A stretch of 59,377 bases of DNA from a virus. Its lineage: Duplodnaviria; Caudoviricetes. The notes below the pieces were generated by a model, which was not told the DNA's origin, did no database searches, and was given only the letters and a program-made list of their open reading frames with translations. Positions within the stretch are counted from its first letter, which is position 1; the number at the start of each line of letters is the position of its first letter. Location: IMG/VR virus record IMGVR_UViG_3300005805_000096, positions 1-59,377 of that record; one strand, given 5' to 3'. Made by a program: the position numbers and the translations under genes. This document shows, one piece after another, positions 20,274 through 51,903 of this stretch.

Positions 20274-20300
20274 TAAATAATGTTATATCAATTATTTATA
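20274..20300. promoter_or_regulatory. Overlapping face-to-face late promoter motifs
   Basis: TAAATA on + at 20274-20279 and TATAAATA on - at 20300-20293, serving divergent genes. Confidence 0.55.
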
Positions 20301-20312
20301 AGGATTCAATGC

Positions 20313-21161
20313 ATGGAAACCAAGTCCAATAACCCTCTGCACAAATATTTTAGACAACCCGTGATCTACTTGAAATTGCCCAGCGAAGGACAATTTTACC
20401 CAGCAGAAAGTTTGGAAATGCCAATTTCTAAAGAATTACCGGTTTATCCGTTGACTTCTAGAGACGAAATTACTTTACGTACACCTGATGCTTTGATTAA
20501 CGGTAGCAGTGTGGTAGAAATCATCCAAAGCTGCATCCCAAATATCAAAAATGCTTGGCAGGTGCTCAATGTTGATTTAGATGCTATTTTTATAGCCATT
20601 AGAATTGCTAGCTATGGACACAATATGGAATTGTCTGTAACTTGTCCAGACTGCAAAGAAGCTCAAAATTATCAAATTGATCTTAGAAACTCTCTAGCAA
20701 AAATACAAAGTCCTAATTACACCGCCTTACACAATGTGGGTCCACTTAAGGTAAAGATGAAACCACAGAGCTATCAGACTATAAACAAAATCAACAACCT
20801 AAGGTTTGAGGAAGTAAAAATATCAGAACAGTTGAATAAATCAAACTACAATGAATTAGATCAGTTAAACTTTATAAAAGAGCAAATGAGAAAGGTTAAT
20901 GATTTGAATTTAGAAGGTTTGGCTGATGGTACAGAATATATTCAAACTCCAGACAATGAAATCGTAAACAACAAAGATTTTATTTTGGATTTTTACAAAA
21001 ATGCTGATGCAGCTACAATCTCAGGCATTGAAAATCTATATCAAGCAATAAGCAAGGATGGGGGTAGTAAAGTAGAAACCTTTACCTGCGGTAAATGCCA
21101 AAAAGAATTCCAAAGTGGAATAGAGTTTGATTACTCCAATTTTTTCGTCAAAGGCTCTTGA
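20313..21161 (+). CDS. gp26: Baseplate hub subunit (gp26-like)
   Basis: LPS.G..Y, T..DEI…PDAL.NG, D.DAI.IAIRIASYG, two CxxC pairs, terminal NFF. Start ATG 20313 after AGGA. Confidence 0.85.
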   Translation: METKSNNPLHKYFRQPVIYLKLPSEGQFYPAESLEMPISKELPVYPLTSRDEITLRTPDALINGSSVVEIIQSCIPNIKNAWQVLNVDLDAIFIAIRIASYGHNMELSVTCPDCKEAQNYQIDLRNSLAKIQSPNYTALHNVGPLKVKMKPQSYQTINKINNLRFEEVKISEQLNKSNYNELDQLNFIKEQMRKVNDLNLEGLADGTEYIQTPDNEIVNNKDFILDFYKNADAATISGIENLYQAISKDGGSKVETFTCGKCQKEFQSGIEFDYSNFFVKGS

Positions 21162-21379
21162 CTTTAACTGACGAAGAATCCATTACGGACTTCCTAGATA
21201 AATTAGATAAAGAGTCAAGAGCCATCAAAAAAGAAACATTAGAACTTTGTTGGTATATGCGTGGTGGAATCACTTATGACGAAGCTATGCATCTCAGTCT
21301 CACTGAGAGAAATATTATAATGGACATTGTGGAAGATCATTTGGAAGTTACAAAGAAAACACAAATGCCATTCTTTTAA
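21158..21379 (+). CDS. gp51: Baseplate hub assembly protein (gp51-like)
   Basis: CWYMRGGITY.EA..LS..ER.II motif; follows gp26. Confidence 0.8.
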   Translation: MTLTDEESITDFLDKLDKESRAIKKETLELCWYMRGGITYDEAMHLSLTERNIIMDIVEDHLEVTKKTQMPFF

Positions 21380-21431
21380 GACTTGCTACGCAAGTCTATC
21401 ACTTTCGCTATCGCTCAGTGATATTTTTTTT
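21379..21431 (+). terminator. Double hairpin plus T-run after gp51 (probable terminator)
   Basis: AGACTTGC-TAC-GCAAGTCT, then ATCACT…AGTGAT, then a run of T's at about 21424-21431. Confidence 0.55.
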
Positions 21432-21444
21432 CTATTATTGTAGT

Positions 21445-21800
21445 TGAAATAGTTCATCCAGATTAATCAGTCACAATTCGCCCGCTAGGGGCGAAAAAAT
21501 GATATGCTTCATCCGAGTAGCACAGTCACTGGTATAAAGAGATTGTTATTATAATAACACGGAGGCGGTTGATCGGTACCCCCTACTCTAGCATCGCTTA
21601 TTGTCAACGGGCGCTTTATTATACGTACCAGCAGCATAATAAAACGTTGGGATGTATCTGTTTCACAGAGCCCAAATCATTCAGACCTTGAGTATAGTTC
21701 CTAATTCTGCAACACCCGAGCTCTTCTGACGGCAATGGCAATTAAATCCAGCAGTCTCAACGGGGGTCTAGCTGCCTAGACCAAACAAGGTTGCTATGTA
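21445..21800 (-). ncRNA. Putative large structured non-coding RNA (unassigned family)
   Basis: ORF-free, relatively GC-rich interval with at least 6 hairpins, long-range helices and a possible pseudoknot; G-U pairs favour the minus strand. Confidence 0.6.
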
Positions 21801-21804
21801 ATGC

Positions 21805-22314
21805 TTATTCTAAACTAAAAAAGAAACTATTATCTAAATCTAAAATGTTTGATAGCTTGTAAACGAAATATTCTTTATATTGTAAACAGGGTGTTATTGA
21901 GCCATGAAGGAGTTGATCGGTTATTACTATTTCTTCTACATTGTTGTATTTGATTATTAATGCCATAAGTTTGTTTGAGTTTTGTGCATCCTGTTGTGCC
22001 TGTTTTATCCAATGGTCCCAATCAGTGATAGAGTTATTTATGATGTTTTGAAATTTTGGTGCTGTCTTATAATGCTTACATTCAATACTGAATTTAAAAT
22101 TGCGAGGGCAGATAAGATCGCCAAAAATGGCATAATCCATACTATGTGTTTCTGTTCTAGCTGTGTTTGTACCACCAAAGTAACTTCCACTGTCAGGATT
22201 TCTGCGAAAAGCTTGAGTTATGCCCAGATGCTCTGCAAAACGCTGACTTAGAAGATTAGCAATTTTTCTTTCGAAAGTGCTACCTTTGTTTTTGCCGTTT
22301 ACGCCCTTTGCCAT
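21805..22314 (-). CDS. Holliday junction resolvase-like PD-(D/E)XK nuclease
   Basis: KG..FER.IA..L…R.P.SG…GDL…IECK.Y motif set. Confidence 0.8.
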   Translation of the reverse strand: MAKGVNGKNKGSTFERKIANLLSQRFAEHLGITQAFRRNPDSGSYFGGTNTARTETHSMDYAIFGDLICPRNFKFSIECKHYKTAPKFQNIINNSITDWDHWIKQAQQDAQNSNKLMALIIKYNNVEEIVITDQLLHGSITPCLQYKEYFVYKLSNILDLDNSFFFSLE

Positions 22315-27325: not shown

Positions 27326-28204
27326 TTATTCATCATGAAAATTGTGATCGCCTCCACCACGCAGACCTTGTCTAGTATAGCTTGGGGTAAGGTTGTTTAG
27401 TTCCAATATATCATCACGTAGATTTTGATTACGTTTTTCAATATTTAATACTCTAGTAAATGAGTTTGTAATAGCAGCGGTATAATATGCAAAGGGATTT
27501 TGACTCTTGCTTTCGTCAAACTGTAATCCAATCTGACTTAACTGTAATAATGCTTGGCTACGCATTTCATCGTTATAAGTATAGCCACGCCAATTACTAC
27601 GAGTAGCATAGCGCTCACACAATTTCATAAACATCAATGCTAGTTTTGGGGTCATAGTGCCGTGTTCTCTGCTAAACTTTCCAGTTTTAACCCCACCAAT
27701 CCAATGGCTTTTACCTATACATATTAGTTCATCTTTATCATCAAACTTATAATGTTGGAATGGAGGAAAGTTTACCTTGACATACTTGTTGTGTTTTGGG
27801 TCATCTTCATCGTACTCTGTATGCAGTGAATCTTCTTCTTCAAACAGTTCTTTAGCAGCAGCCTTAGCCTTTTTAGTTTTCACGTCATCCAACGGGATGT
27901 GTTCCCAAGTCATAACTCTAAATACAAGGTCTGTAACCGGTATTTTTGTGTGTTTGATCTCAAAGGACTCTAATTTCAATTTTTGAGTTCCGGCTTTGGC
28001 TTGGGCTTGTTCGTAAGCTATTCTGCTTAATCTTTCTGCTCTTGCTTTTTTGGCGGCAGATATATTTTTCTTATTGATCTTGCTTAGATCAGCTACGATC
28101 AAGTCGTAGTCTGCGAATTCTGGTTTTTTAAAACTGCAATAACTGCTTTTGCTTTTGTGGATCTCCTTAAGGATATCTCGGTTGTTTAGGTAATTGTGTT
28201 TAAT
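27326..28204 (-). CDS. gp55: Late transcription sigma factor (gp55-like), probable AUU start
   Basis: NW.GYTY.DEM…F…KS.NPFAY.T….NSF motif. The frame is open upstream of the track start through NYLNNRDIL.EI; GGGAG SD lies 7 nt before ATT at 28204. Confidence 0.85.
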   Translation of the reverse strand: MKHNYLNNRDILKEIHKSKSSYCSFKKPEFADYDLIVADLSKINKKNISAAKKARAERLSRIAYEQAQAKAGTQKLKLESFEIKHTKIPVTDLVFRVMTWEHIPLDDVKTKKAKAAAKELFEEEDSLHTEYDEDDPKHNKYVKVNFPPFQHYKFDDKDELICIGKSHWIGGVKTGKFSREHGTMTPKLALMFMKLCERYATRSNWRGYTYNDEMRSQALLQLSQIGLQFDESKSQNPFAYYTAAITNSFTRVLNIEKRNQNLRDDILELNNLTPSYTRQGLRGGGDHNFHDE

Positions 28205-28231
28205 TTTAAATCTCCCTATAAAGGTAAGTGA

Positions 28232-28261
28232 ATACTAACAGATTTCAATGGACTAAGTCAA
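28232..28261 (-). promoter_or_regulatory. Sigma70-type promoter for gp55
   Basis: TTGACT, 18-nt spacer, extended -10 TGtTAGTAT. Confidence 0.6.
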
Positions 28262-28318
28262 GTGTTAAATTATATGATACTTTTTTAAAACCCATAAATA
28301 TTTACACAGGAAATAACT

Positions 28319-38757: not shown

Positions 38758-41700
38758 ATGCCTGTAACCAAAACTTTAAATTTTTTACCAACGGTATTCC
38801 AAAGCGAAACCAATCAAAAATTCTTAAATGCCACAATGGACCAATTGGTCACAGAACCAAATCTTGTGACTATCAATGGTTATGTTGGGCGCAAATTTGC
38901 ACCAGGTGAAGTAGATGTAACAGAATATGTACGTGAACCATCTACTGCTAGAGCAGACTATCAACTTGAACCTTCTGTCATTGTTAAAGAAACATTGTCT
39001 GGCAATGTTGATTTCCATGTAGCATATCCTGAGGTGTTACAAAAAATAGCATTTTACGGTGGTAAAACTGATAATCAAAGCAGGCTTTGGAGTCAAGAAT
39101 ATTACAGCTATAATCCTTTAATAAACTTTGATGCTTTCATTAACTTTAATCAATATTATTGGCTACCTGATGGACCCTCTGCTGTTAATGTGTTTGCGGG
39201 CGGAACTGAATTAGAAAAAACTTATTACATTTATCCAGACTCCGCAGCTGGAGTCTATAATATTAGTGGGTTTGGCACGGTAAGCAACCCTGATTTGGTA
39301 TTAGCTAGGGGTGGAAATTATCAGTTCAAAGTAAAACAACCAGGGAAACCTTTCTGGATTCAGACTGATCCGGGTGTAAACGGTACTCAAATAGCTAACA
39401 GTAATCTAACTAGTAGACAAATCTTTGGGGTCACAGGCAACGGAACAGATGACGGCACAGTTTATTTCAATGTACCTGATGTAACGGCTCAGGATGTGTT
39501 TGTAACCATGCCTACGGTACAAAATGTTGATTTTGCTACCAATCTTAAATTTAATCAATTACAAGGACAATTAGTTAGTACCATTAATGCTGCATATGGT
39601 GGTATCGATGGTCAACAAACAAACTGGGGCGGCAAATTCCTTATTTTTACCACACTGTGGGCAGACGATGCAGATTGGACAGTTGGGGCAACCACTGTAC
39701 CTTTTTATGAACGCACTGGCATATTTGAAATAAATTTAAGCCCTAGTGGTAGCGATTATGTAGTAGATCTTGACTACGTTGCAGATATACCATTGAATAA
39801 TAAAGTAGCTATACTAAGCGGTATACAAAACGGTAATACAGAATGGTTTAAAAACCCAACTTATGTGCTTGAATTAGTACCAATAGTAACAGCAAATTTA
39901 GATACATTGTATTATCAAGATGGTAGTGACCCAACTCAAGTTGGCGTAATTAAAATAGTTGATCCAAACACTGCATCAATCAATATTGATACGGATATTT
40001 TAGGTAAGAAAAACTATATTAGTCCAAATGGAGTAACATTTACCAATGGACTTAAGATACGTTTTGATATAAATGTTACACCAGAGAGTTATCAAGAAAA
40101 AGAATATTACGTAGACGGTGTTGGCATTGCAATTACTCTCACTCCTGTAACCAATTTGGTTGTAAATTTTGCGTTAGGTGCATCAAATTATGATCCTACT
40201 ACAGCTTTCACTGGCTTGGCTACGGCTACCTACGATAGGACTTTGGAGACTTTATCGATTAGCACCGGTGATGTACCTGCAAATGCAAATATTAGTTACG
40301 GAACTTTCCCAAATTCTATAAACTCAAATTATATTATAACCCAAGATATTAATCTATCATTACCCTACAAGGGCGGATTAAATGATCCTGGTGAACATGT
40401 TAGTACACAACTACGAGATGACGTAATAGGTATGACAGCCGTAGGTATTCCTATTTTTGGTACTTATGGTGGGGAATATGTGCCAGGAGGTAGTGGCACA
40501 CAGTGGCATTTAAACACGACTACTGTTAAAATTAATGGACAGGACGTATATAACGGGTTTGTTGATGATGAAGGTATATACCAATACACCGATAGTTCTT
40601 TTATTACAGCCAATGCATGGGGTAATGTTAGCGGGTTTACAGTAACAGACAACGGTTATTTAGATGTTAATGGGCATAGCAAAATCGTAGGTTTCGCATC
40701 AGACGGATACCCTATTTACGGTCCATTTGGTTATAGTAATGCACTAAGTTCTTCATCTAGTATTATCAGAATGGTCAGCGGATATACTGCAAATGTCAGC
40801 AACCCAGATCGTCCGCAATCACAAACAGTAAATGTGGCATTGCCGGCTAGCTCAAACATTATTACCGTAAACACAAGTTTTGATATTAATCCTGGCATGA
40901 GAATTACCACAAACGACGCTGGAATATTAAGCGGCACCGTTTGGGTCATACGTAGCGGACAGCAAACTATTGTAGGACTAAATGGACATAATCTTACAGT
41001 TAATCAAATTCAATTGAGTAGCAATGTAACAGTGTCTGAGGGTAATAGTTTAACCTTTGCTTATTTGCCTGGTGCATTTATTGAAGATTATACCTTTAGC
41101 AGCAATGTAGGCACATTAGACGAATATAATGGTAGATTTTGTGTTACACCAGAATATCCTAATGGGACCTATGCATATTTTGCTACACAGGATAACACTA
41201 ATACTCCAACATATCCTTATTTTATCGGTAGTGCTTTTTTTGGTAGCTTAGAAAATGATACTAATTCAAACTTATCAGAACCAGAATATATAACGATCAA
41301 TAGAAGTAGTAGAGACTTAAACCCGTGGAGTAGACGTAATAGATGGTTTCATAAAGATGTAATAACAGCCACAGCAATTTATAATAACACTATACCGTTA
41401 TTGGACCAAAATTATAAAGCAAAGCGACCTATAATAGAATTTGATCCTAATATACAATTATTTGACTTTGGAATAAACGGCCTACAACCAATTGATCTAT
41501 TAGATAAAACAACCACCAATCCATTCTTAACCTTTGAAGGGGCAACCAGTGCAGAAATTGATGGAATTGAACTAGTTAATAATATGCGTGTGATTTTCAC
41601 CGCAGACGAAGATCCATTAACTAGAAATAAAATTTGGGTTGTAAACTTTGTTGAATTAACCCCCGGGGCGGAACTTACTATACATTTAGAACTGGCTTCG

Positions 41701-44700
41701 GATGGTAATGTACAAGCCAACGATACGGTCAGTGTATTCAGTGGAGAGACTGAAGCTGGCAATAGTTATTATTACAACGGCAGTGTATGGGATCAAGGAC
41801 AGCGTAAGATTCAGACCAACCAACCACCATTATTTGATATTGTAGATAAAATTGGAATAAGTTTTAGTGATAGAAGCAAATATCCACCATCTGTATTAGG
41901 TTTGACCTTTAACGGTAATAAGATTTTTAGTTATACTGAAGGAAGTGGTGTCAACGATCCAGTGTTAGGCTTTCCATTAGCCTATAAAAACCTTAATAAT
42001 ATTGGTGATATTGAATTTACGAATAATTATGATACTGAATTGTTTAGATATACCGTTGACCAAATAAACTATGTTGATAAAGTTAATACTGGCGATTTAA
42101 TAAAAAATAATGATGATGGATCTAAAACTAGGTTAAATGTTTGGACCACTGTGGTTCAACCTAGTAGACAATATCAGGTTATTCCTTATGTGTTTGATGG
42201 TATAACCAATAGTTTCCTGATAGATGTAATGCCAGATCAACCAACTAGTTTACCTACTCTACAGGTTTACGTTAATTTTAAATTATTAAAACCAACGCAA
42301 TATCAAATTTTTAATTTACCGCAAAACAAAAAATCAATAACAATCAGACCTTCATTAATTGAACAAGGTGATAAGATTGACATTTTAGTTATAAGCAAAC
42401 AAGTAAGTCAATTAGGATACTATGAAATCCCGGTAAATCTAAATTACAATGCACAGAACTTTGTTCTAAATAAACCTACCTTAGGTGATATAAGAAATCA
42501 TATAGGTGAGTTAACAGAAAATAGTTTACAATTTAAAGGGCAATATCCTGGTAATAGTAATCTGCGCGACATTTATGTAGCAGCGCAGGGCGGCACAATT
42601 TTACAGCAAAGTGCTCCTACTACCTTATCTAGCATGTTCCTTTGTGATGAACAAATGAATGTAGTAAATGCTATATTAAATGCACAACAAGAATATACAA
42701 GATTCAAAAATAAATTTTTGAATATAGCAAGTACAGATGCTAACGTAAATGTAAGTGATCCTATTTCCGCCGTTGATTACATTATACAACAGATTAATCA
42801 AATAAAGAATAAGACTTTTCCGTGGTATTATAGTGATATGATACCATATGGTGATAATAAACAAATCATAACTTATAACATCTTTGACCCATTAGAACGT
42901 AGGTATGAAATAACCAATTTATTTGATATGCAGACATTGAGCAATCGCGCAGTGCTGGTATATCTAAATAATCAACAGTTAGTTTGGAGTAAAGATTACG
43001 TATTCAATCCTACTTTACCGGCCGTAGAACTTCTAGATAGAGTAGTTTTAGAAGTTGATGATACTCTAACCATAGTGGAATATGCAGATACTGACGGTAA
43101 TTGGATACCAGAAACGCCAACGAAATTGGGGCTTTACCCTAAATTTGTTCCTATAATTTATACTGATGACACTTATAGAACACCAGTACAGATGATTAAA
43201 GGCCATGATGGAAGTTTAATGCCTGCCTTTAATGATTTTAGAGATGCAATTTTATTAGAATTAGAAAGAAGAATTTATAACAATATAAAAGTTGAATATA
43301 ATGAAAAATTATTCAGCATATATGATAGTAAACCAGGTAAATTTAGAAATATTGGATATACTCAAGCTGAGTGGTCTAGATTACTAGCTAGGGTTTATTT
43401 GCCATGGACTGGATTTAATAATTTAGATTATGTGACAAATTCAACCTTTGTAACCGATAATCCTTGGACATACAACTATGCAGCCAGTTTAGATGTTGTT
43501 GATAGTGAGAATTTACCTGGAAGTTGGCGTGCTTGTTTTGATTATTTTTATGATTGTCAAACACCACACTTGCGCCCATGGGAAATGTTAGGCTTCAGCG
43601 AAGAACCTGATTGGTGGCAAGACACTTACGGTCCAGCACCTTATACGTCAGGTAATACCATATTATGGACAGATTTAGAAAACGGTTATATTGCTGCTGG
43701 ACCAAGACAGGGTATTGATCCTACTTTTACTAGACCAGGTCTCAGTCAATTTATTCCAGTTAACGTTAACGGTGAACCAATGCCGCCAATTGGATTGTTA
43801 ACTAACAAATATAACCAATCTACATTCAATAAAAATTGGCAAGTTGGTCAATGGAGTCCAGTTGAAACTGCTTGGAGAAACACCAGCGAATACCCGTTTG
43901 CATTTCAATTATTAGCAGCAGTTACTCAACCAGCAAAATATTTTGCTGTTGGTGCCACAATTAACAAATATAAGTTCAATGAAGATTTACAGCAGTTCTT
44001 AATACAAGATACTAATTATAGATTAACTCAACAAGATATTGAAGTTAATGGTTATGTAACTCTTGACAATACTATTCAACGTAGTGCCAGCTATATTAAC
44101 TGGATTGGTGATTATCTAACCACTTTAGGAATTCTTAATAAAGGAAACCTATTACGATATATTAGAGATTACAGTGTTCAACTAAGTTATAGAATGGCAG
44201 GGTTTAGTGGAAAAAATTATTTAAAAATCTTAGCAGAACAAAATAGTCCCAATAGTATTAATCAATCTGTGATTATTCCTGACAGTGATTTTGCTGTTGA
44301 GTTAAACAAGTCTACTCCACTTAACAATGTTAGGTATAGTGCAGTTATAATTGAAAAGTTAGCTGAAGGTTGGTCTGTTAGTGGATATGATTTTAATAAC
44401 CCTTATTTCACAGTAATCATTCCTACAGCTAAAGGTTCAAACAGAACAGTTTCATCTTTGAATCTCAGTGTCGATTGGTTTACTGAATTTACAAACCTCA
44501 AAGTTAATGTTCCTTATCAAACAGTGTTTGACAATAATCAACAAATAGCCACATTCTTGTGCGGTTACCAAAGGTTTTTACAATCACAAGGTTTTAGGTT
44601 TGACTATTATGACCCTGATCTAGCCCAGATAAGAAATTGGGATTTAAGCGCCAAAGAATTCTTATTTTGGGTTGAACAAGGTTGGCCTGCAGGTAGTGTT

Positions 44701-47700
44701 TTAATACTAAGCCCTATAGCTGACAACCTAAAGTTTCAATTTAATGCGGCGGTGGTAGATGGTATTGAAAATACCTTTTATGGCACCAAAGTAATGACAC
44801 AGAATTATGTAGTTTTAGACAGTGATGCATATACTGTAAACAGAGATAATAATGTTTTTAAATTAAGTTTAGATAATAAAACAGGAGACCTAATAGGTTT
44901 TGTTAGTTTAAATCTTGTTCAGTACGAACATGTAATTATCTTTAATAATATCACTCAGTTTAATGATATAATATATGACCCGGCCAGTGGTCAACGCCAA
45001 TATAAGATGAAAGTTGTTGGTAAAAAAACAGGAGATTGGACGGGTCAATTGGCCGCGCCAGGCTTTGTATATAATAGTCCTGGTGTTATTTCTTGGAGGC
45101 CAGATACAGATTACCTAAAAGGTGATCTAATAGAATATAAAGGATTTTATTATGCTGCCAGCAAAGACTTACCTGGCACTCCTGAATTTATATTTGCCAA
45201 TTGGATTCCAGTAGATAAGGATAAAATTCAAACGGGTTTACTGCCAAACTTTGCAACAAACGCAGGGTTATCCGTAGATTTCTATGACGTTGACGGGGTA
45301 AATTTAGACAGTAAGTTTGACCTTTATAGCTTAGGATTGATAGGTTATAGAAATCGTAGTTATTTAAATGATTTAGGCGTTGATGATACAACACAGGTTA
45401 AATTTTATCAGGGGTTCATCAAACAAAAAGGCACACTCAATGCTATTAATGCTTTAGCAAATGTTAGTTTTAATAATGAAAATACTAGCGTAAACATAAA
45501 TGAGGAATGGGCATTTAGAGTAGGAGCCTACGGTAGTTTAGCTACGAATCAATACGTTGAGTTGGTGCTGGATGAAAGCTATACCCTAAATAACCCAACT
45601 AGCTTATTAGTTAATAGTAATAATGTTGTTACATACACCTCTCTATATAATGATGGTCAAGGTCTATACAAAACTTCTGAGATGCCATTTAGTTCTCCAT
45701 TTTTGTTAAACAGAACAAATAACAGCATTAGAACAGATGATATACAAACAGCGGGCTATGCTAGTTTAGAGGATGTTGATTTTACAATCTTTGACATTAA
45801 AGATTTGAATTCTCTTAATGGTAACCTTAATAATATCGGAGTTGGATCAACCATATGGGCAGCAAAATCCTATGCTAACGAATGGGAGATTTATAGGGTA
45901 AATGAAACTTATGCAGAAGTTCAACGTATTGACAATAGTCTAAATGGATTCTACCTTATAACTACTAATGTGGCACACAATTTTGCAACGAGTGACATTG
46001 TACTATTAAAAAATTGCGGAGTATTTTCAGGATTTTATCAAGTTGAGATTGTCCCTACACTTAATACTTTTATTATCAATTTTGGAGTAGCTATTCCTGA
46101 TTTTAATAGTTTAGTTACAATTTCTAGTCCTGCATATAAATTAACAAGTCAGAGGTTTACCTATGGCAGTGAAATAAAGTCATCAACTCCAATTGAAGGA
46201 TACAGAGCTAATAGTAAAGTTTGGGTAGATAACGCAACAATCAATAACACTTGGGCAGTATATAATAAATCTAATCCGTGGTTAGCAAATACATCACTTA
46301 GTCAAAGCGAGACCTATGCTAACTTAAATTATGGTTCAGCAACACATATTACACAAAACAATGAATTTATTGTAGTTGGCGCAAGTGGGTTTAATAACGG
46401 AGTTGGTAGGTGCTATACTTTTGCCACAGATGATGCTGGTAATTACGCTGAAAAACCATACATAGATCCATATTCAATTGACTCTAAAGAATTTGGTATC
46501 ACCGTAGACGGCACAAATGATGTTGTAGTTATTGGCGCACCAGGCAGCAGAAACGATACTGGATACGTGTTTTATTACAGCAGAAACTTTTTAGGACAGA
46601 TAAATCTACAACAGGTTATTGGTACAAATGTCTCTGGTGCACGATTTGGTCAAAGTGTTAGCGTTAGTGACGATGGTGAATGGCTATACGTTGGTGCACC
46701 AAACGAAGATGCTGTATATGTTTATAGTTATAATACCAACATACCACTGCAAAGTGATACAGTAGTTGGTAATGGTGTTGCTACAGTTTTCACATTGTCT
46801 TATACACCAGTAGATCAAAATACTTTAGTTGCTACCTTAATTGATACACCTATTATTAATTATGTACCCGGGGTTGATTTTACAGTCACTGGAGCAACAA
46901 TTACGTTCACGTCACCACCAACTGCTAATGTAGCTGTGGTGCAACGTGCTGGATTCCAGTTTGTTGATAAGATATTAGGCACAGCAGGATCTAAATTTGG
47001 TTATAGTGTTGCCACTAGTACTGGTGGGGCCCAGGTTGTTGTTGGTGCTCCAGATCTAAACGTTAACGGTGATATACAAGCTGGTGGTATATCTGTTTAT
47101 GATAGAAGTATTGAAAAATTCATAGCCAACGGAAGTCAAAGCCAGTTTGGTGGGCAGAGACCAGTTCAATCATACAGTAAAGTTTATATCGATGCAAATT
47201 TACAGGCTACACCAACTAACTATACCGTCAGCGGCAATAATGTAAACTTTACGACAAATGTATCAGCTGGCAGCATAGTAACTATTGAAACGGATGAATT
47301 TTACAAAATTCAAGATCTATACCCTGCAGACAATCAATCAGAAGCAAAATTTGGCTACAGCGTTGACTTATGCAGCTTTAATTGCAGCATCTATGCAGGT
47401 GCACCATTTGAATCTACTGATGTACGAGCAAGTATCGGTAGTGTGTATAGATTCTTAAATCAAGGTAGGGTATATGGTACAATAACCGGCACGGTACAAA
47501 ACCCAGTAGTTACTGCCAATAACAGTATTAGATTGAATGATTTTGAAGTAGTGTTTAGTGGAGGAAACTTAACCTCCATAGTGAATTCAATTAATAATGC
47601 AGATATTCCCGGGGTCACAGCAACCAATGTTGGCGGATATCTAACCATTAACTCTGATAGTGTGTTGGTAGCAGATAAATTAAGGGTATTGCCTGGCGTA

Positions 47701-50700
47701 GGAAACACCCTTGATCAATTAGGGTTGACTGTATTTGAATATGTTGAAGAAATTACAAATCCAACAGCAAACCCTTATGATAACTTTGGTAAAATAGTAA
47801 AAATCAACGACTCAAGTGATGTACTAGCTGTAGGTAGTGATAATGGTATCACAGTAAGTGACTGTACATTTGATAATAATACAACAACCTTTGACGCCAT
47901 AAGCACAAGTTTTAGTGATGCAATTACCAGCGGTGCTGTGTGGGTGTTTAGTTATATACAGGATGCAAGAAACAATATAGATAACCCTGGTAATTTTAAT
48001 TTTGTTCAGCAGATAAGTCCGCAAGGTAATGCATTGGTATCAGGAGCTAACTTTGGCTCTGGATTAGATTTTAAGAACTATAGAATGGTAATTGGTAGCA
48101 CAGACTATACCGGAACACTATTGAATCAAGGTCAGGCTTACTTATATACAAATCCTCAACAATTGACTGGTTGGGATGTCATAAGAGAAGAAAGTCCAAA
48201 AGTTGATATAAGCTGTATTCTAAAAAGCTATGTTTACAGTGTTAATAACCAAACTATCATTAATAATTTAGATTATATTGATCCTGCTAAAGGTAAAATT
48301 TTAGGTAATGCTGAACAAGATATTACCTACAAAACTGATTACGACCCTGCAATTTATAATGTAACCAATTTGGATAATGTCAGTGAAGATACAATTTTCC
48401 ATTGGAATAACAATCAAGTTGGTCAGGTCTGGTGGGATCTTAGTGCAGTTAGATATTTGGATTATGAACAAGGTTCAATTAAATATCGTGCAAATAATTG
48501 GGGAAGAGAATTTCCAGGAAGTAGTATAGATGTTTATGAATGGGTTGAAAGCATTTATCCACCAAGTCAATACGTAGCTAATGGTGGTAATGGAATACCT
48601 AAGTATTTAGAAGGACAAAATGCTTATGTAGCTCTAAGTTATGTTGATCCTGCTACAAATCAACCCACAGTAAAGTATTATTTCTGGGTTAAAGATAAAA
48701 CAGTAGTTACAATAAATCAATTTGGAAGAACTATTCCTACCACCAGCATAGCTGATTTAATACGTAATCCAAAAGGAAGTGGAATTAGGTATTTTGCTGC
48801 TATCCGCGACGATGCTGTGGCAGTCTATAATATGGTTGGACTACCTGTTGGTAAGGATACAATATTCCATTTAGATTATGCTACCTTATTAAACAGTAAT
48901 ATTATTCACAGTGAATATGCGTTGGTCAGTGAAAAAGCGCAACGGTCTGAAGTTATTCCAACTAATATATACAATAAATTAGTGGATAGTGCATGCGGTG
49001 CAGATATATTTGGAAACAATGTTCCAGATCCTTTCCTAACACCACAAACACGTTATGGTATCGATTTTAGGCCGAGACAAACCATATTTGTTAACAGATT
49101 TGAAGCCATTAAAGAAATGGTTAGTTTTGTTAACAGAGTATTTTCTAAGAACCTAATAAGTCAAAATTATGATTTAAGTACATTAAACAGCGTTGAACCG
49201 ATACCACCAGTAGAGTTAGGTTTGTATGATATCACAGTACCTACATATGAAACATTGGGCTATATTGATATTACCATACAACCAATTGGCTATAGTGTAT
49301 TGGTTGAAAGCGATGCAACGGTAAGCGGGTTGTGGACCATCTATATAAAACAGGCTAATAACACTTGGTTATTGACAAGGGTACAAGCTTGGTATACCCC
49401 TGAATACTGGGAGTTTGTTGATTGGTATGCTGACGGGTTTGATTCTGGAGTTAAACCAACTTATACAGTTAATACACCAGCAGACTTATCAACCCTACAA
49501 TTGCAACCTAGAGATATTGTTAAAATATTGAATAATGGTAGAGGCAAGTGGGTTGTTGTACAGGTATTTAGAACAGAGGTTGTAACTATAGCAGTTGAAT
49601 CAGGCACCATCGCCCTTAAAGATAATCTATATGATTTAGAAAAATATGGTATGGGTTTTGGTAATGGAAACTTTGATATACAAAGATTTGATCAAAACCC
49701 AAGTATAGAATTAAGGTTTATATTTAATGCTCTTAAGAATGACATCTTCATTAATCAGCTAGGTCAAGAATTTATAAACCTATTCTTTGTGTTTATTAAT
49801 TATGTATTGAATGAACAAAAGTATATTGATTGGGCATTTAAAACTAGCTTTATAACTGTATTACATAAAATACGCGGGTTAACACAACCACCACTATTTA
49901 GAACTGAGAATCAAGATTACTATAAGCAGTATATTGAAGAAGTCAAACCATACCACACTACTATCAGAGAATATATTATTGATTATCAAGGTGCTGATAA
50001 TCTAAACGGGTATGTAACTGACTTTGATGTACCTGCATACTATGATTCAGTGTTAAATCAGTGGCGTAGCCCAAGCGGTGAATTTTTCCAAGACGGGGTT
50101 GCCTTACAAGAACCTAAATATAGAGATTGGTTGTTGAATTACAGTTATAGCATTGGCTCTTTAGAAATTGCCGATGCAGGTAGTGGATATACCTTACCGC
50201 CAGTTATTACAATCACTGGTAGTACCATTGGTAACGATGCAGTAGCCAAAGCTATTGTAAGCAATGGTGTTATTTCTAGAATAGAAGTTTTGTACGGAGG
50301 ATCTAATTATATAACGCAGCCAATCGTAACTATAACAGGCGGCAATGGCTCTGGAGCACGAGCTTATGCAATACTTAAAAATGAAACTACTCGTAAACTT
50401 AAGACTACATTAGTTTATGATAGAATAACTTATGGTACAGATGTTATTAATTGGGAACCAAATACCAGTTATGTAGCTGGACAGATTATTGCCTATAACG
50501 GGGTTGCATATACAGTAAACAGTAATTTTACCAGTGATGATACATTCAACGGAAATAATCTAACAATATATCAAGCCAGCGGATTCCGCACTGCTAATGA
50601 TAGAATTCAAAGTTACTATCAACCAGAAGTTGGATTACCGGGTAAGGATTTTGCACAACTTCAAAGCGGAATTGAATATCCTGGTGTTGGAGTTCAAGGC

Positions 50701-51903
50701 ATACTTTATACCGATGTAGGCGGCTTTGATGCTTATCCATTTGATTCTGATCCATTTGACTTATTCATATTAGATGAAGATGGCAATAACATATATGAAG
50801 AAAGTATTTTGGACAGTAAAATATCAAGTCTTTATACAGATACCAGTTTAGGGGTAGATCCTGAGGATATTGACATCGATGGTGGGGCTTATGTTGATCA
50901 ATATAGCAGCCATGCTCCGGAAGAGTTAATACCTGGTCGCACTTATGATACTTTAGATTTAACTGTGAAAACTTTTGCAACATTATGCAACACCACAGCA
51001 TATAGTGATTGGGTATCAAACACAGCATTCTATGTTGAAACTATTGATGTGTTGGATGGTGGCAGCGGTTATAGCAGTTCTAACGTTGTGGTAACGGTAG
51101 TAGGGAATGCAGTATCAACCGCCACAGCTAACGCAGTATTAGACAGTAATGGCACCATTACAAGCATTACTGTAATTTCCTCTGGTTTAGGTTATACAGA
51201 AATACCTAATATTGTTATTACTGGTGGAAACCTAGTAGCTGCCAATGCTGTAGCAAGATTAAGTCAAAATACCTATAGTACTTTTGATTACAGAATATTC
51301 AAAGATATGAATGATAATTGGCAATATGCTGCGATAACTGCCACAGCAAATAGCACTCTAGTAAATGCTATGACAATAACTAGTAACACTATTTCATTAG
51401 TAGATAGCAGCGGATTTTACATTCCAGATGTAGATCAAGCAATTCCTGGAGTAGTATTCATAAACGGTGAACGCATTACTTATTGGGAAAATGATACCGC
51501 AACCAACACATTAAAGCAGATTCGTAGAGGAACAGCAGGTACCGGTGCTGTAGCTCATGCAGTAAACAGTGAAGTAGTGAACGGCAGTATAAATTCAACC
51601 GTTCCACGTAGTCAGTATTGGATTTGGGAACCATCAGCAAATACTTCATTGATAACCACTAGCGGAAATGTGGCAGTTTGGTACGCTAATACTTCATATT
51701 TCCGCAGCGAAATATGGTATAATCAAGGTCTGTCAGTGTATAGTTTAAGCGAAGAATACCCTGAAGCTTTGCCATTGGATGAAATACCTTATCTAATGAC
51801 TGAAAGTAATTCCAGTATAGTAACCAATCAAGAATTTAGTACTGCTACGGACGGTAACGGGCTGTATGCAAGTGATAAAGTGCAAGCCGTTTTTATTAAA
51901 TAA
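38758..51903 (+). CDS. Giant baseplate wedge/adhesin protein (gp7-like) with YHYH-like domain and FG-GAP-like repeats
   Basis: Uninterrupted 4381-aa ORF after gp6. DGYPIYGP…LDEYNGRFCVTPEYP.GTYAYF; FG…GAP repeats; VKPYHT; GSGY..P repeats. Confidence 0.8.
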   Translation: MPVTKTLNFLPTVFQSETNQKFLNATMDQLVTEPNLVTINGYVGRKFAPGEVDVTEYVREPSTARADYQLEPSVIVKETLSGNVDFHVAYPEVLQKIAFYGGKTDNQSRLWSQEYYSYNPLINFDAFINFNQYYWLPDGPSAVNVFAGGTELEKTYYIYPDSAAGVYNISGFGTVSNPDLVLARGGNYQFKVKQPGKPFWIQTDPGVNGTQIANSNLTSRQIFGVTGNGTDDGTVYFNVPDVTAQDVFVTMPTVQNVDFATNLKFNQLQGQLVSTINAAYGGIDGQQTNWGGKFLIFTTLWADDADWTVGATTVPFYERTGIFEINLSPSGSDYVVDLDYVADIPLNNKVAILSGIQNGNTEWFKNPTYVLELVPIVTANLDTLYYQDGSDPTQVGVIKIVDPNTASINIDTDILGKKNYISPNGVTFTNGLKIRFDINVTPESYQEKEYYVDGVGIAITLTPVTNLVVNFALGASNYDPTTAFTGLATATYDRTLETLSISTGDVPANANISYGTFPNSINSNYIITQDINLSLPYKGGLNDPGEHVSTQLRDDVIGMTAVGIPIFGTYGGEYVPGGSGTQWHLNTTTVKINGQDVYNGFVDDEGIYQYTDSSFITANAWGNVSGFTVTDNGYLDVNGHSKIVGFASDGYPIYGPFGYSNALSSSSSIIRMVSGYTANVSNPDRPQSQTVNVALPASSNIITVNTSFDINPGMRITTNDAGILSGTVWVIRSGQQTIVGLNGHNLTVNQIQLSSNVTVSEGNSLTFAYLPGAFIEDYTFSSNVGTLDEYNGRFCVTPEYPNGTYAYFATQDNTNTPTYPYFIGSAFFGSLENDTNSNLSEPEYITINRSSRDLNPWSRRNRWFHKDVITATAIYNNTIPLLDQNYKAKRPIIEFDPNIQLFDFGINGLQPIDLLDKTTTNPFLTFEGATSAEIDGIELVNNMRVIFTADEDPLTRNKIWVVNFVELTPGAELTIHLELASDGNVQANDTVSVFSGETEAGNSYYYNGSVWDQGQRKIQTNQPPLFDIVDKIGISFSDRSKYPPSVLGLTFNGNKIFSYTEGSGVNDPVLGFPLAYKNLNNIGDIEFTNNYDTELFRYTVDQINYVDKVNTGDLIKNNDDGSKTRLNVWTTVVQPSRQYQVIPYVFDGITNSFLIDVMPDQPTSLPTLQVYVNFKLLKPTQYQIFNLPQNKKSITIRPSLIEQGDKIDILVISKQVSQLGYYEIPVNLNYNAQNFVLNKPTLGDIRNHIGELTENSLQFKGQYPGNSNLRDIYVAAQGGTILQQSAPTTLSSMFLCDEQMNVVNAILNAQQEYTRFKNKFLNIASTDANVNVSDPISAVDYIIQQINQIKNKTFPWYYSDMIPYGDNKQIITYNIFDPLERRYEITNLFDMQTLSNRAVLVYLNNQQLVWSKDYVFNPTLPAVELLDRVVLEVDDTLTIVEYADTDGNWIPETPTKLGLYPKFVPIIYTDDTYRTPVQMIKGHDGSLMPAFNDFRDAILLELERRIYNNIKVEYNEKLFSIYDSKPGKFRNIGYTQAEWSRLLARVYLPWTGFNNLDYVTNSTFVTDNPWTYNYAASLDVVDSENLPGSWRACFDYFYDCQTPHLRPWEMLGFSEEPDWWQDTYGPAPYTSGNTILWTDLENGYIAAGPRQGIDPTFTRPGLSQFIPVNVNGEPMPPIGLLTNKYNQSTFNKNWQVGQWSPVETAWRNTSEYPFAFQLLAAVTQPAKYFAVGATINKYKFNEDLQQFLIQDTNYRLTQQDIEVNGYVTLDNTIQRSASYINWIGDYLTTLGILNKGNLLRYIRDYSVQLSYRMAGFSGKNYLKILAEQNSPNSINQSVIIPDSDFAVELNKSTPLNNVRYSAVIIEKLAEGWSVSGYDFNNPYFTVIIPTAKGSNRTVSSLNLSVDWFTEFTNLKVNVPYQTVFDNNQQIATFLCGYQRFLQSQGFRFDYYDPDLAQIRNWDLSAKEFLFWVEQGWPAGSVLILSPIADNLKFQFNAAVVDGIENTFYGTKVMTQNYVVLDSDAYTVNRDNNVFKLSLDNKTGDLIGFVSLNLVQYEHVIIFNNITQFNDIIYDPASGQRQYKMKVVGKKTGDWTGQLAAPGFVYNSPGVISWRPDTDYLKGDLIEYKGFYYAASKDLPGTPEFIFANWIPVDKDKIQTGLLPNFATNAGLSVDFYDVDGVNLDSKFDLYSLGLIGYRNRSYLNDLGVDDTTQVKFYQGFIKQKGTLNAINALANVSFNNENTSVNINEEWAFRVGAYGSLATNQYVELVLDESYTLNNPTSLLVNSNNVVTYTSLYNDGQGLYKTSEMPFSSPFLLNRTNNSIRTDDIQTAGYASLEDVDFTIFDIKDLNSLNGNLNNIGVGSTIWAAKSYANEWEIYRVNETYAEVQRIDNSLNGFYLITTNVAHNFATSDIVLLKNCGVFSGFYQVEIVPTLNTFIINFGVAIPDFNSLVTISSPAYKLTSQRFTYGSEIKSSTPIEGYRANSKVWVDNATINNTWAVYNKSNPWLANTSLSQSETYANLNYGSATHITQNNEFIVVGASGFNNGVGRCYTFATDDAGNYAEKPYIDPYSIDSKEFGITVDGTNDVVVIGAPGSRNDTGYVFYYSRNFLGQINLQQVIGTNVSGARFGQSVSVSDDGEWLYVGAPNEDAVYVYSYNTNIPLQSDTVVGNGVATVFTLSYTPVDQNTLVATLIDTPIINYVPGVDFTVTGATITFTSPPTANVAVVQRAGFQFVDKILGTAGSKFGYSVATSTGGAQVVVGAPDLNVNGDIQAGGISVYDRSIEKFIANGSQSQFGGQRPVQSYSKVYIDANLQATPTNYTVSGNNVNFTTNVSAGSIVTIETDEFYKIQDLYPADNQSEAKFGYSVDLCSFNCSIYAGAPFESTDVRASIGSVYRFLNQGRVYGTITGTVQNPVVTANNSIRLNDFEVVFSGGNLTSIVNSINNADIPGVTATNVGGYLTINSDSVLVADKLRVLPGVGNTLDQLGLTVFEYVEEITNPTANPYDNFGKIVKINDSSDVLAVGSDNGITVSDCTFDNNTTTFDAISTSFSDAITSGAVWVFSYIQDARNNIDNPGNFNFVQQISPQGNALVSGANFGSGLDFKNYRMVIGSTDYTGTLLNQGQAYLYTNPQQLTGWDVIREESPKVDISCILKSYVYSVNNQTIINNLDYIDPAKGKILGNAEQDITYKTDYDPAIYNVTNLDNVSEDTIFHWNNNQVGQVWWDLSAVRYLDYEQGSIKYRANNWGREFPGSSIDVYEWVESIYPPSQYVANGGNGIPKYLEGQNAYVALSYVDPATNQPTVKYYFWVKDKTVVTINQFGRTIPTTSIADLIRNPKGSGIRYFAAIRDDAVAVYNMVGLPVGKDTIFHLDYATLLNSNIIHSEYALVSEKAQRSEVIPTNIYNKLVDSACGADIFGNNVPDPFLTPQTRYGIDFRPRQTIFVNRFEAIKEMVSFVNRVFSKNLISQNYDLSTLNSVEPIPPVELGLYDITVPTYETLGYIDITIQPIGYSVLVESDATVSGLWTIYIKQANNTWLLTRVQAWYTPEYWEFVDWYADGFDSGVKPTYTVNTPADLSTLQLQPRDIVKILNNGRGKWVVVQVFRTEVVTIAVESGTIALKDNLYDLEKYGMGFGNGNFDIQRFDQNPSIELRFIFNALKNDIFINQLGQEFINLFFVFINYVLNEQKYIDWAFKTSFITVLHKIRGLTQPPLFRTENQDYYKQYIEEVKPYHTTIREYIIDYQGADNLNGYVTDFDVPAYYDSVLNQWRSPSGEFFQDGVALQEPKYRDWLLNYSYSIGSLEIADAGSGYTLPPVITITGSTIGNDAVAKAIVSNGVISRIEVLYGGSNYITQPIVTITGGNGSGARAYAILKNETTRKLKTTLVYDRITYGTDVINWEPNTSYVAGQIIAYNGVAYTVNSNFTSDDTFNGNNLTIYQASGFRTANDRIQSYYQPEVGLPGKDFAQLQSGIEYPGVGVQGILYTDVGGFDAYPFDSDPFDLFILDEDGNNIYEESILDSKISSLYTDTSLGVDPEDIDIDGGAYVDQYSSHAPEELIPGRTYDTLDLTVKTFATLCNTTAYSDWVSNTAFYVETIDVLDGGSGYSSSNVVVTVVGNAVSTATANAVLDSNGTITSITVISSGLGYTEIPNIVITGGNLVAANAVARLSQNTYSTFDYRIFKDMNDNWQYAAITATANSTLVNAMTITSNTISLVDSSGFYIPDVDQAIPGVVFINGERITYWENDTATNTLKQIRRGTAGTGAVAHAVNSEVVNGSINSTVPRSQYWIWEPSANTSLITTSGNVAVWYANTSYFRSEIWYNQGLSVYSLSEEYPEALPLDEIPYLMTESNSSIVTNQEFSTATDGNGLYASDKVQAVFIK

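Follow-up and report, generated by a model that had tools for sequence, protein, structure and literature searches.

A predicted new family of large structured RNAs in uncultured jumbo phages shows one short element twice

What occupies a 425-nt stretch without any sizeable gene in phage DNA that is otherwise almost completely coding? This question is raised by the IMG/VR virus record IMGVR_UViG_3300005805_000096 (Duplodnaviria; Caudoviricetes), whose 59,377 bases were analysed at full length and are called the window here. The record is rated as 17% complete, hence the window covers only part of a very large phage genome. When open reading frames (ORFs) of at least 50 aa are counted, 97.3% of the window is coding, and only two gaps of at least 120 nt are free of such ORFs. 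The larger of them, at positions 21380–21804, had drawn the attention of a preliminary description made from the sequence alone, which proposed a novel multi-domain non-coding RNA (ncRNA) on the minus strand; its account of the gap was confirmed and, as set out below, the proposal itself is supported. The gap has a GC content of 0.43, whereas the value is 0.372 over the window as a whole and 0.30 in the second gap, and the longest ORFs within it comprise at most 42 aa, which counts against coding. The second gap (28103–28318, 216 nt, GC 0.30) has divergent genes on both sides and is probably a promoter region. Comparison with related sequences indicates that the minus strand of 21380–21804 is a single-copy gene for a highly structured ncRNA of about 420 nt, and that this RNA represents a new, well-supported family, found in numerous uncultured jumbo phages whose recombination and baseplate genes are of the T4 type.

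The support for an RNA structure is comparative and does not come from single-sequence folding, in which both the minus strand (z = -1.29) and the plus strand (z = -0.46) stay within the unremarkable range. In two viral contigs that encode a nuclease of the type found next to the gap in the window (63% identity), the non-coding sequence recurs downstream of the nuclease gene; long blocks of it are identical, and the differences are visibly compensatory. A pattern derived from the most conserved block (GAGTAGGGGGTAC..CAACCGCCTCC) matches at least 119 IMG/VR viral contigs, and two further patterns yielded 14 more loci, some of which are altered inside the conserved block. We used two covariance models with 30-sequence seeds and structures set by hand, R1 for the 5' domain (31 pairs) and R2 for the 3' domain (35 pairs), and a search space made up of the window and 99 non-redundant loci (982 kb). 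R1 matched 99 of these 100 sources, once each, and missed only L123, while R2 matched all 100, again once each. The R1 match in the window scores 81.5 bits (E 6.9e-19), and the R2 match is adjacent to it on the same minus strand (21451–21647, 141.7 bits). The window has the 5' domain (Pa to Pe) and then the 3' domain (Pf, the Pg-Ph-Pi junction, the pseudoknot and Pj) on one strand and in the order of the family. Standard pairs are formed by 93.4% of the cells in the 5' domain (98 distinct rows) and 98.4% in the 3' domain, with changes on both sides in 28 of 31 and 19 of 35 pairs, respectively. None of 500 shuffle controls reached any of five measures in either domain, and pairing falls to 34–52% if the partners are slid by 1–3 columns. 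Altogether about 66 pairs in 15 helices were modelled, 47 of them with compensatory changes, plus the pseudoknot. P1 is paired in 76%, because this hairpin has two register classes that the model left unreconciled. G-U cells number 970 vs 13 A-C cells, and the fold therefore exists on the minus strand of the window only, as had been supposed.

The RNA begins with a multi-helix 5' domain. The 3' domain that follows is built on a three-way junction and includes an invariant hairpin as well as a pseudoknot between a loop and a strand; next come a small hairpin and a linker, and a module of two hairpins forms the 3' end. The coordinates of all parts are given in Table 1.

Table 1. Parts of the predicted RNA and its neighbouring genes in the window
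Feature	Position	Strand	Basis or remark
Whole RNA gene, about 420 nt	21380..21804	-	predicted; from the nuclease stop to the stop of the convergent 73-aa gene
5' domain, six helical elements	21647..21797	-	R1 match and covariation
Pa	21792-21790/21711-21713	-	5' domain model
P1 hairpin	21782-21776/21771-21765	-	5' domain model
Pb	21764-21761/21715-21718	-	5' domain model
Pc	21756-21750/21728-21734	-	5' domain model
Pd	21700-21696/21684-21688	-	5' domain model
Pe	21674-21666/21648-21654	-	5' domain model
Pf, long hairpin, loop CUGGUA at 21631-21626	21612..21646	-	helices 99.0% and 98.2% paired; double changes in 10/11 pairs
Three-way junction (Pg, Ph, Pi)	21538..21589	-	R2 alignment, helices 3-6
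Pg	21589-21586/21538-21541	-	pair 70:209 = UA 58, AU 33, GC 5
Ph, invariant hairpin (GGGGGUACCGAUCAACCGCCUCC)	21583-21573/21561-21568	-	never varies; served as search key
Pi, variable hairpin	21559-21544	-	all three pairs covary
Pseudoknot 3' strand UACCAG	21529..21534	-	complements the Pf loop
r1, GGAUGAA after ACUC, in the loop of a small variable hairpin (UGCU...AGCA)	21508..21514	-	comparison of relatives
Pj hairpin UUCGCCC-CUAGC-GGGCGAA	21476..21496	-	96.4% paired; double changes in 5/9 pairs
r2, GGAUGAA after AUCU, in the linker before the 3' hairpins	21453..21459	-	comparison of relatives
T1 hairpin, 6-bp stem around inner loop UGAGCGAUAGCGAAA	21398..21422	-	conserved downstream motif
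T2 hairpin GACUUGC-GUA-GCAAGUC, likely RNA 3' end	21380..21396	-	sequence and conservation downstream of T1
Upstream neighbour, 169-aa PD-(D/E)XK nuclease	21805..22314	-	PF24608, E 4.9e-25; PHROG 244 'RusA-like resolvase'
Convergent neighbour, conserved 73-aa protein	21158..21379	+	next after the gp51-type baseplate hub gene
gp51-type baseplate hub gene	20280-21161	+	PF12322

The pseudoknot connects the Pf loop with a segment located just 3' of the three-way junction. It had been suggested from CTGGTA and TACCAG in the window and is borne out by the relatives: 35 different Pf loop types are met by a complementary downstream segment, such as CUUGCG/CGCAAG, CUGAU/AUCAG and GUGAUU/AAUCAC besides CUGGUA/UACCAG in the window, with a mean unbroken run of 6.3 pairs vs 4.8 in mismatched combinations. 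All motifs listed in the preliminary description are present where it had placed them. Among these the GGTCTAG/CTAGACC hairpin (21782–21765), the outer TTGGG/CCCAA stem, the 11-bp stem (21646–21636/21622–21612) and the TTCGCCC/GGGCGAA stem covary, and the perfect 16-bp palindrome is a variable hairpin with covariation. CCCGTTGA, pointed out as a repeat, does occur twice, with both copies in conserved single-stranded joints. The inner TCTG/CAGA stem had to be given up, as it is displaced by a covarying UG/CA helix (UA 85, CG 13); a direct check of this stem in the alignment is unreliable, the loop columns of the model alignment being out of register. Nor did the long-range ACCTTG/CAAGGT pairing hold, its six pairs being canonical in 8, 1, 54, 82, 80 and 9% of 98 rows. 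The GGGGG/CCTCC helix always pairs as proposed, but it never varies, in part as a search key. Of the GAGTAG/CTACTC stem, said to enclose this helix, four pairs are always possible and invariant, and they compete with a GAG/CUC helix in which one pair covaries (UA 58, AU 33, GC 5).

Regarding the extent of the RNA, the preliminary description had set it to 21445–21800. This region does belong to the RNA, but the RNA continues to about 21380, because the two 3' hairpins T1 and T2 travel with it. As these hairpins are kept whatever the downstream gene, the RNA probably fills the whole gap from about 21804, where the similarity to relatives begins, to about 21380. The T1 motif was found in 93 of 96 distinct downstream sequences, with a flanking stem of at least 6 bp in 89 of the 96 and with 38 different stem sequences. 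The conserved form of the T1 inner loop is UGAGCGNNAGCGAAA, with the compensatory variants GAGC..AGCG, GAAC..AGUG and GAGU..AACG. The layout UGA-GC-GNNA-GC-GAAA of this loop resembles a tandem G-A internal loop plus a GNRA-type tetraloop on a 2-bp helix. The layout departs from a canonical kink-turn and could be assigned to none of the known motif classes, and a dispersed repeat was ruled out by the single occurrence of the motif in the window.

We then have to ask whether this is a known RNA. Rfam 15 at gathering score gave no match anywhere in the window. With the threshold relaxed to E≤10, cmscan of 21300–21900 returned only a chance match (Lnt, E = 6) inside the nuclease ORF, and of three matches in 11 homologous loci plus the window (48 kb) none overlaps the RNA. 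None of the 4227 Rfam families, GOLLD, ROOL, HEARO (omega RNA), OLE and raiA included, matches the RNA region. For the group I intron (RF00028) and for bacterial RNase P RNA no model match to the RNA was obtained in the window or the 11 homologous loci. An intron is further rejected since there are no exons, the upstream ORF being complete with its stop codon, and since the flanking genes converge. ARAGORN detected no tRNA or tmRNA in the window and none in 39 homologous loci, and the preliminary description was right in setting tRNA, tmRNA and RNase P aside. A tmRNA is also rejected by the complete genome of a relative, in which a separate tmRNA lies 84 kb from the RNA copy. In this genome of 346,856 bp one cluster (102,805–116,353) holds a permuted candidate tmRNA (110,821–111,310) along with 27 tRNA genes. 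In the second complete genome (G002) ARAGORN called no more than 6 genes, one of them a permuted tmRNA. A retron- or DRT-type template RNA was rejected as well, with PF00078 absent from all three records searched (the two complete genomes and the window) and present in control genomes. A very divergent member of one of these classes (group I intron, RNase P RNA, tmRNA or a retron/DRT-type template RNA) beyond the reach of the Rfam models is conceivable in principle, as universal RNAs can take aberrant forms in phages, and identical short sequences that bound a segment are reminiscent of how templates end in rolling-circle reverse transcription. Against it speak the cmscan results at E≤10 in the window region and the 11 homologous loci, the absence of any ARAGORN hit here with tmRNA and 27 tRNAs located elsewhere in the relative's genome, the lack of PF00078 in the two complete genomes and the window, and the position of the RNA outside any gene. 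We consider this explanation highly improbable.

Regarding the distribution of the family, one RNA copy per genome was found in all four records tested, which include the two complete genomes (346,856 and 337,119 bp, with terminal repeats). Among one genome each of 185,579 prokaryotic species, the RNA is present on two contigs only, of 148 and 183 kb, which belong to one metagenome-assembled genome (MAG) labelled Haliscomenobacter. These contigs, NZ_JBBAKG010000003.1 and NZ_JBBAKG010000001.1 (L155 and L156), each carry a full RNA copy. They are probably binned jumbo-phage DNA and might hint at the host. A blastn search of the window RNA and a main-clade RNA against 50,697 deposited phage genomes gave no match. 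The DNA runs with the window sequence are lake and freshwater metagenomes. No description of this RNA was found in a full-text search of the literature, and a 2026 preprint on prokaryotic non-coding space leaves viral genomes outside its coverage. Conservation of the RNA exceeds that of the neighbouring proteins: it retains long stretches of identity, compared to only 63% identity for the adjacent nuclease. It is rare to find large structured RNAs in which dozens of pairs covary, and nearly all classes described earlier proved to have a fundamental function or an unprecedented architecture. Being abundant in freshwater jumbo phages and single-copy, the RNA offers a defined object for structure work.

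The most unusual feature of the RNA is a short element that occurs twice, as r1 and, about 52–60 nt downstream, as r2, with the same 7–8 nt in both. The stem of the r1 hairpin varies, by inspection, between UGCU/AGCA, CUAC/GUAG and AACAC/GUGUU. In a 56-sequence alignment the variable purines of the two copies change together: columns 359/421 are GG in 28, AA in 27 and AG in 1 sequence (agreement 55/56), columns 363/425 are GG in 30 and AA in 26 (agreement 56/56), and no third RNA column tracks them. Extending the comparison to 84 distinct r1/r2 contexts, 75 were parsed as identical in 7 of 7 positions and 2 share 6 of 7; the remaining 7 are parsing errors and identical by eye. At least 14 variants of the element exist, among them GGAUGAA (window), RGAURAU including AGAUAAU, AGACGAA, AGAUCAA, GAAUAAU, GUCGAAA, AUGGGAA and ACAGAAU, and even near-identical RNAs (e.g. 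L072 and L122) differ at r1 and r2 together. We know of no described RNA in which two exposed copies of a short element change in step with each other. Since r1 and r2 are identical, exposed and lineage-specific, the simplest explanation is a single partner that recognises both.

The best explanation overall, to which we assign a probability of about one half, is a stable RNA or ribonucleoprotein (RNP) that acts in trans and shows one element twice, encoded by a single-copy gene of a new family of phage RNAs. The RNA would act alone or as an RNP and would not be a cis leader, an intron or a mere terminator. Its conserved core would serve as a scaffold or catalytic body, on which the loop of a hairpin would display r1 and a single-stranded linker r2. 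Both copies are kept identical within a lineage, the element differing between lineages, and both would be read by one lineage-specific partner, in the simplest case a base-pairing nucleic acid. This repeat is the best experimental handle on the RNA, with one partner read twice as the working hypothesis.

Several points weigh against this explanation. With none of the 20 sequencing runs listed for the window sequence on record as RNA, the ends, abundance and expression of the RNA are predictions and as such unproven, as is the co-transcription with the Hc1-like and nuclease genes that the preliminary description put forward. The family was gathered via the motif of a single hairpin (Ph), which biases its diversity, and the invariance of Ph is partly by construction because this hairpin was the search key. 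The alignments behind the pair counts were fitted to the model structures, so that the counts lean towards structure; we regard this caveat as minor because the effect size and the number of pair types are large. Regarding a nucleic acid partner, the reverse complement of r1/r2 has 58 matches within 1.5 kb of the RNA (1.19 Mb in total), which is about chance, and takes no fixed position. At the scale of a complete genome 22 and 39 reverse-complement matches were counted vs a median of 26 for 7-mers of the same composition. None of the homologous sites in the two complete genomes, which are about 70% identical over 142 kb, has a matching change, and the phage tRNAs and tmRNA hold no consistent complement of r1/r2. 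Nor did the RNA itself yield a sequence complementary to the element. Finally, the identity of r1 and r2 may be due in part to linkage within haplotype blocks moved by recombination, which is plausible beside a homing endonuclease gene.

The repeat can be read in two further ways. A new class of phage RNP or ribozyme might combine the core with two copies of a programmable 7–8-nt guide that recognise two identical sites or a symmetric substrate, either DNA or RNA. If so, it could work together with the preceding recombination genes (gp46/gp47 nuclease and resolvase) or against a host function. Guide and seed RNAs, such as small regulatory RNAs or omega/HEARO RNAs, likewise combine a conserved body with a short, lineage-variable exposed segment. 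This likeness is an analogy only, as the variable segment here is duplicated and identical, and neither a target nor an effector gene nor an Rfam match was found. We regard such a twin-guide RNA as a long shot. Alternatively, the RNA could be a self-processing ribozyme with a catalytic core and with r1 and r2 as two equivalent sites, between which the segment of about 55 nt containing Pj would be cut out, exchanged or circularised. The RNA resembles large ribozymes in its size, its pseudoknot and its invariant nucleotides, the identical sites do bracket a discrete structured segment, and in most relatives a homing endonuclease gene adjoins, as is the case for mobile introns. However, no Rfam 15 ribozyme matches and no internal guide covaries with r1/r2; flanking exons are missing, the downstream genes converge, and none of 100 aligned members lacks the segment between r1 and r2. 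A ribozyme of this kind therefore appears rather unlikely to us.

The neighbourhood of the RNA was compared in a table of 122 rows, in which L001–L003 duplicate the window and two contigs also entered as L082 and L108. Ahead of the nuclease gene in the window, on the minus strand, there are genes for an Hc1-like protein (PF07432), a 350-aa protein, a radical-SAM protein and the Rad50/Mre11-type gp46 and gp47. In relatives, too, gp47-gp46 and radical-SAM genes form a block on the same strand ahead of the RNA. The downstream block is usually convergent (93 of 122 rows) and consists of the 73-aa, gp51 hub and tape-measure-like genes or of DUF6614 and others. Directly upstream and on the same strand, a SegE-family GIY-YIG homing endonuclease (PF19835, E 1e-32) is encoded in 86 of 122 rows. 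The window-type nuclease is upstream of the RNA in 7 rows, and other genes are found in a minority. The link to the adjacent nuclease put forward in the preliminary description is thus not specific, most relatives having a SegE-type gene in this place and some an unrelated one. The nuclease family itself occurs in 269 phage records, annotated as Holliday-junction resolvase and including Campylobacter and Staphylococcus phages, and the best match to the window protein is from Agrobacterium phage Atu_ph07 (58%). Being this widespread, the nuclease is a core gene and not an RNA-specific partner.

In most relatives the SegE-type gene stops 10–30 nt before the first RNA helix (e.g. L112 777–1205 and L025 2752–3819). 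Some copies among loci L004–L122 have long C-terminal extensions, and the window has no SegE-type gene. T4 seg genes are known to behave as selfish insertions. The SegE-type gene is best read in the same way, as a probable selfish insertion beside a very conserved gene. Free-standing seg and mob genes of the T4 type lie beside conserved targets, segB within the T4 tRNA cluster being an example, and a SegE-type gene upstream fits an insertion near a conserved RNA gene. The likeness concerns the neighbouring gene and not the RNA, and in the window a resolvase-type PD-(D/E)XK gene takes this place.

The position of the RNA also raises the possibility of a cis element, i.e. an elaborate 3' untranslated region, stabiliser or bidirectional terminator-insulator separating two convergent operons, an origin or primer transcript for the replication-recombination module next to it, or a sequence kept mainly as the DNA target of the homing endonuclease. 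The RNA always ends a same-strand block (gp47-gp46-radical SAM, plus the endonuclease where present) and faces a convergent gene in the 93 rows mentioned above. On the plus strand T1 and T2 resemble a terminator for the convergent genes, and in some relatives the distance from the endonuclease stop codon to the first helix is too short for a promoter. A scan with consensus promoters gave 2 promoter-like sites vs 4.7 expected, and a terminator scan did not call the 3' hairpins. A conserved AGGCA motif lies upstream of the RNA, which was ruled out as a universal promoter by its absence from several family members. Yet a terminator or a DNA target needs neither about 66 covarying pairs nor a pseudoknot nor a strand-specific G-U pattern, and the form of the RNA, including its 3' hairpins, is retained while upstream and downstream genes differ. 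A plain terminator or spacer was rejected on the first two of these grounds, with compensatory changes in 47 of the pairs, and a cis element in the wider sense we consider unlikely.

Large phage RNAs of comparable complexity have been described before. GOLLD and ROOL are likewise large, ornate, multi-pseudoknotted ncRNAs of phages and prophages that emerged from comparative metagenomics, and their roles reportedly stay unresolved despite solved structures. Both are reported to form RNA-only complexes. The RNA described here differs from them in being shorter (about 420 nt), in giving no covariance-model match and in belonging to freshwater T4-like jumbo phages, as well as in having the r1/r2 repeat and the T1 hairpin. 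GOLLD and ROOL (Rfam RF01998 and RF03087) often have neighbouring tRNA genes. ARAGORN found no tRNA gene near the RNA in 39 homologous loci. An RNA-only homo-oligomeric scaffold in the manner of GOLLD, ROOL, OLE or raiA, with the invariant loops and the GA-rich 3' hairpin as contacts, would agree with a large ornate phage RNA that has many conserved unpaired nucleotides and no evident protein partner nearby, and with the RNA-only complexes of GOLLD and ROOL. It agrees less well with the missing sequence or structure match to those families and the missing tRNA neighbours, and the conserved loops are neither self- nor mutually complementary, r1 and r2 being identical and not complementary. Such a scaffold is, in our estimate, distinctly unlikely.

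Judged by gp46 (49.8% identity), no deposited phages are closer than the PA5oct group of Pseudomonas jumbo phages. PA5oct (NC_071039) has the same neighbourhood, with a late sigma factor, SbcD/SbcC-type gp47/gp46, a 'RusA-like' resolvase and a baseplate hub, and the 2.2-kb stretch from resolvase to baseplate hub is annotated with CDSs of 39–50 aa. Within it, a candidate region at about 75,940–76,900 on the plus strand (L157 10290–11250) is richer in GC and poor in ORFs, with a strong hairpin at its end (about L157 11120–11150). The part compared with the RNA comprises about 75,985–76,800. The motif ACATAGCANCNTTGTT is restricted to the window clade and PA5oct among 175 loci (ACATAGCAGCTTTGTT at L157 10336). 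It is followed in PA5oct after 107 nt by GGGTGNTGCAGAA (GGGTGCTGCAGAA), which none of 200 shuffles reproduced. The pairing GCAGC/GCUGC in PA5oct vs GCAAC/GUUGC in the window is a compensatory difference, and the minimum-energy fold of PA5oct has the same helix order Pa-P1-Pb-Pc. The best R1 match across the PA5oct genome is this very region, with a Pe-like hairpin (E 0.5, not significant alone), while R2 and nhmmer found nothing in PA5oct and Atu_ph07. Unlike the window RNA, the PA5oct region is much longer and is devoid of the 3' core motif, and a blastn search with it retrieved only isolates of at least 99.6% identity. The four ncRNAs reported for PA5oct in Table 1 of PMC7318152 lie outside this region. 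On sequence grounds the region is likely, but unproven, to be a remote homologue of the 5' domain of the RNA. PA5oct is accordingly a likely entry point to the RNA in a cultured model phage, in which the homologous region is at present annotated as tiny proteins.

Apart from the RNA locus, we noted that positions 38758–51903 of the window (plus strand) comprise, within a block of giant genes, a single ORF of 4381 aa, which follows ORFs of 1082, 704 and 1134 aa.

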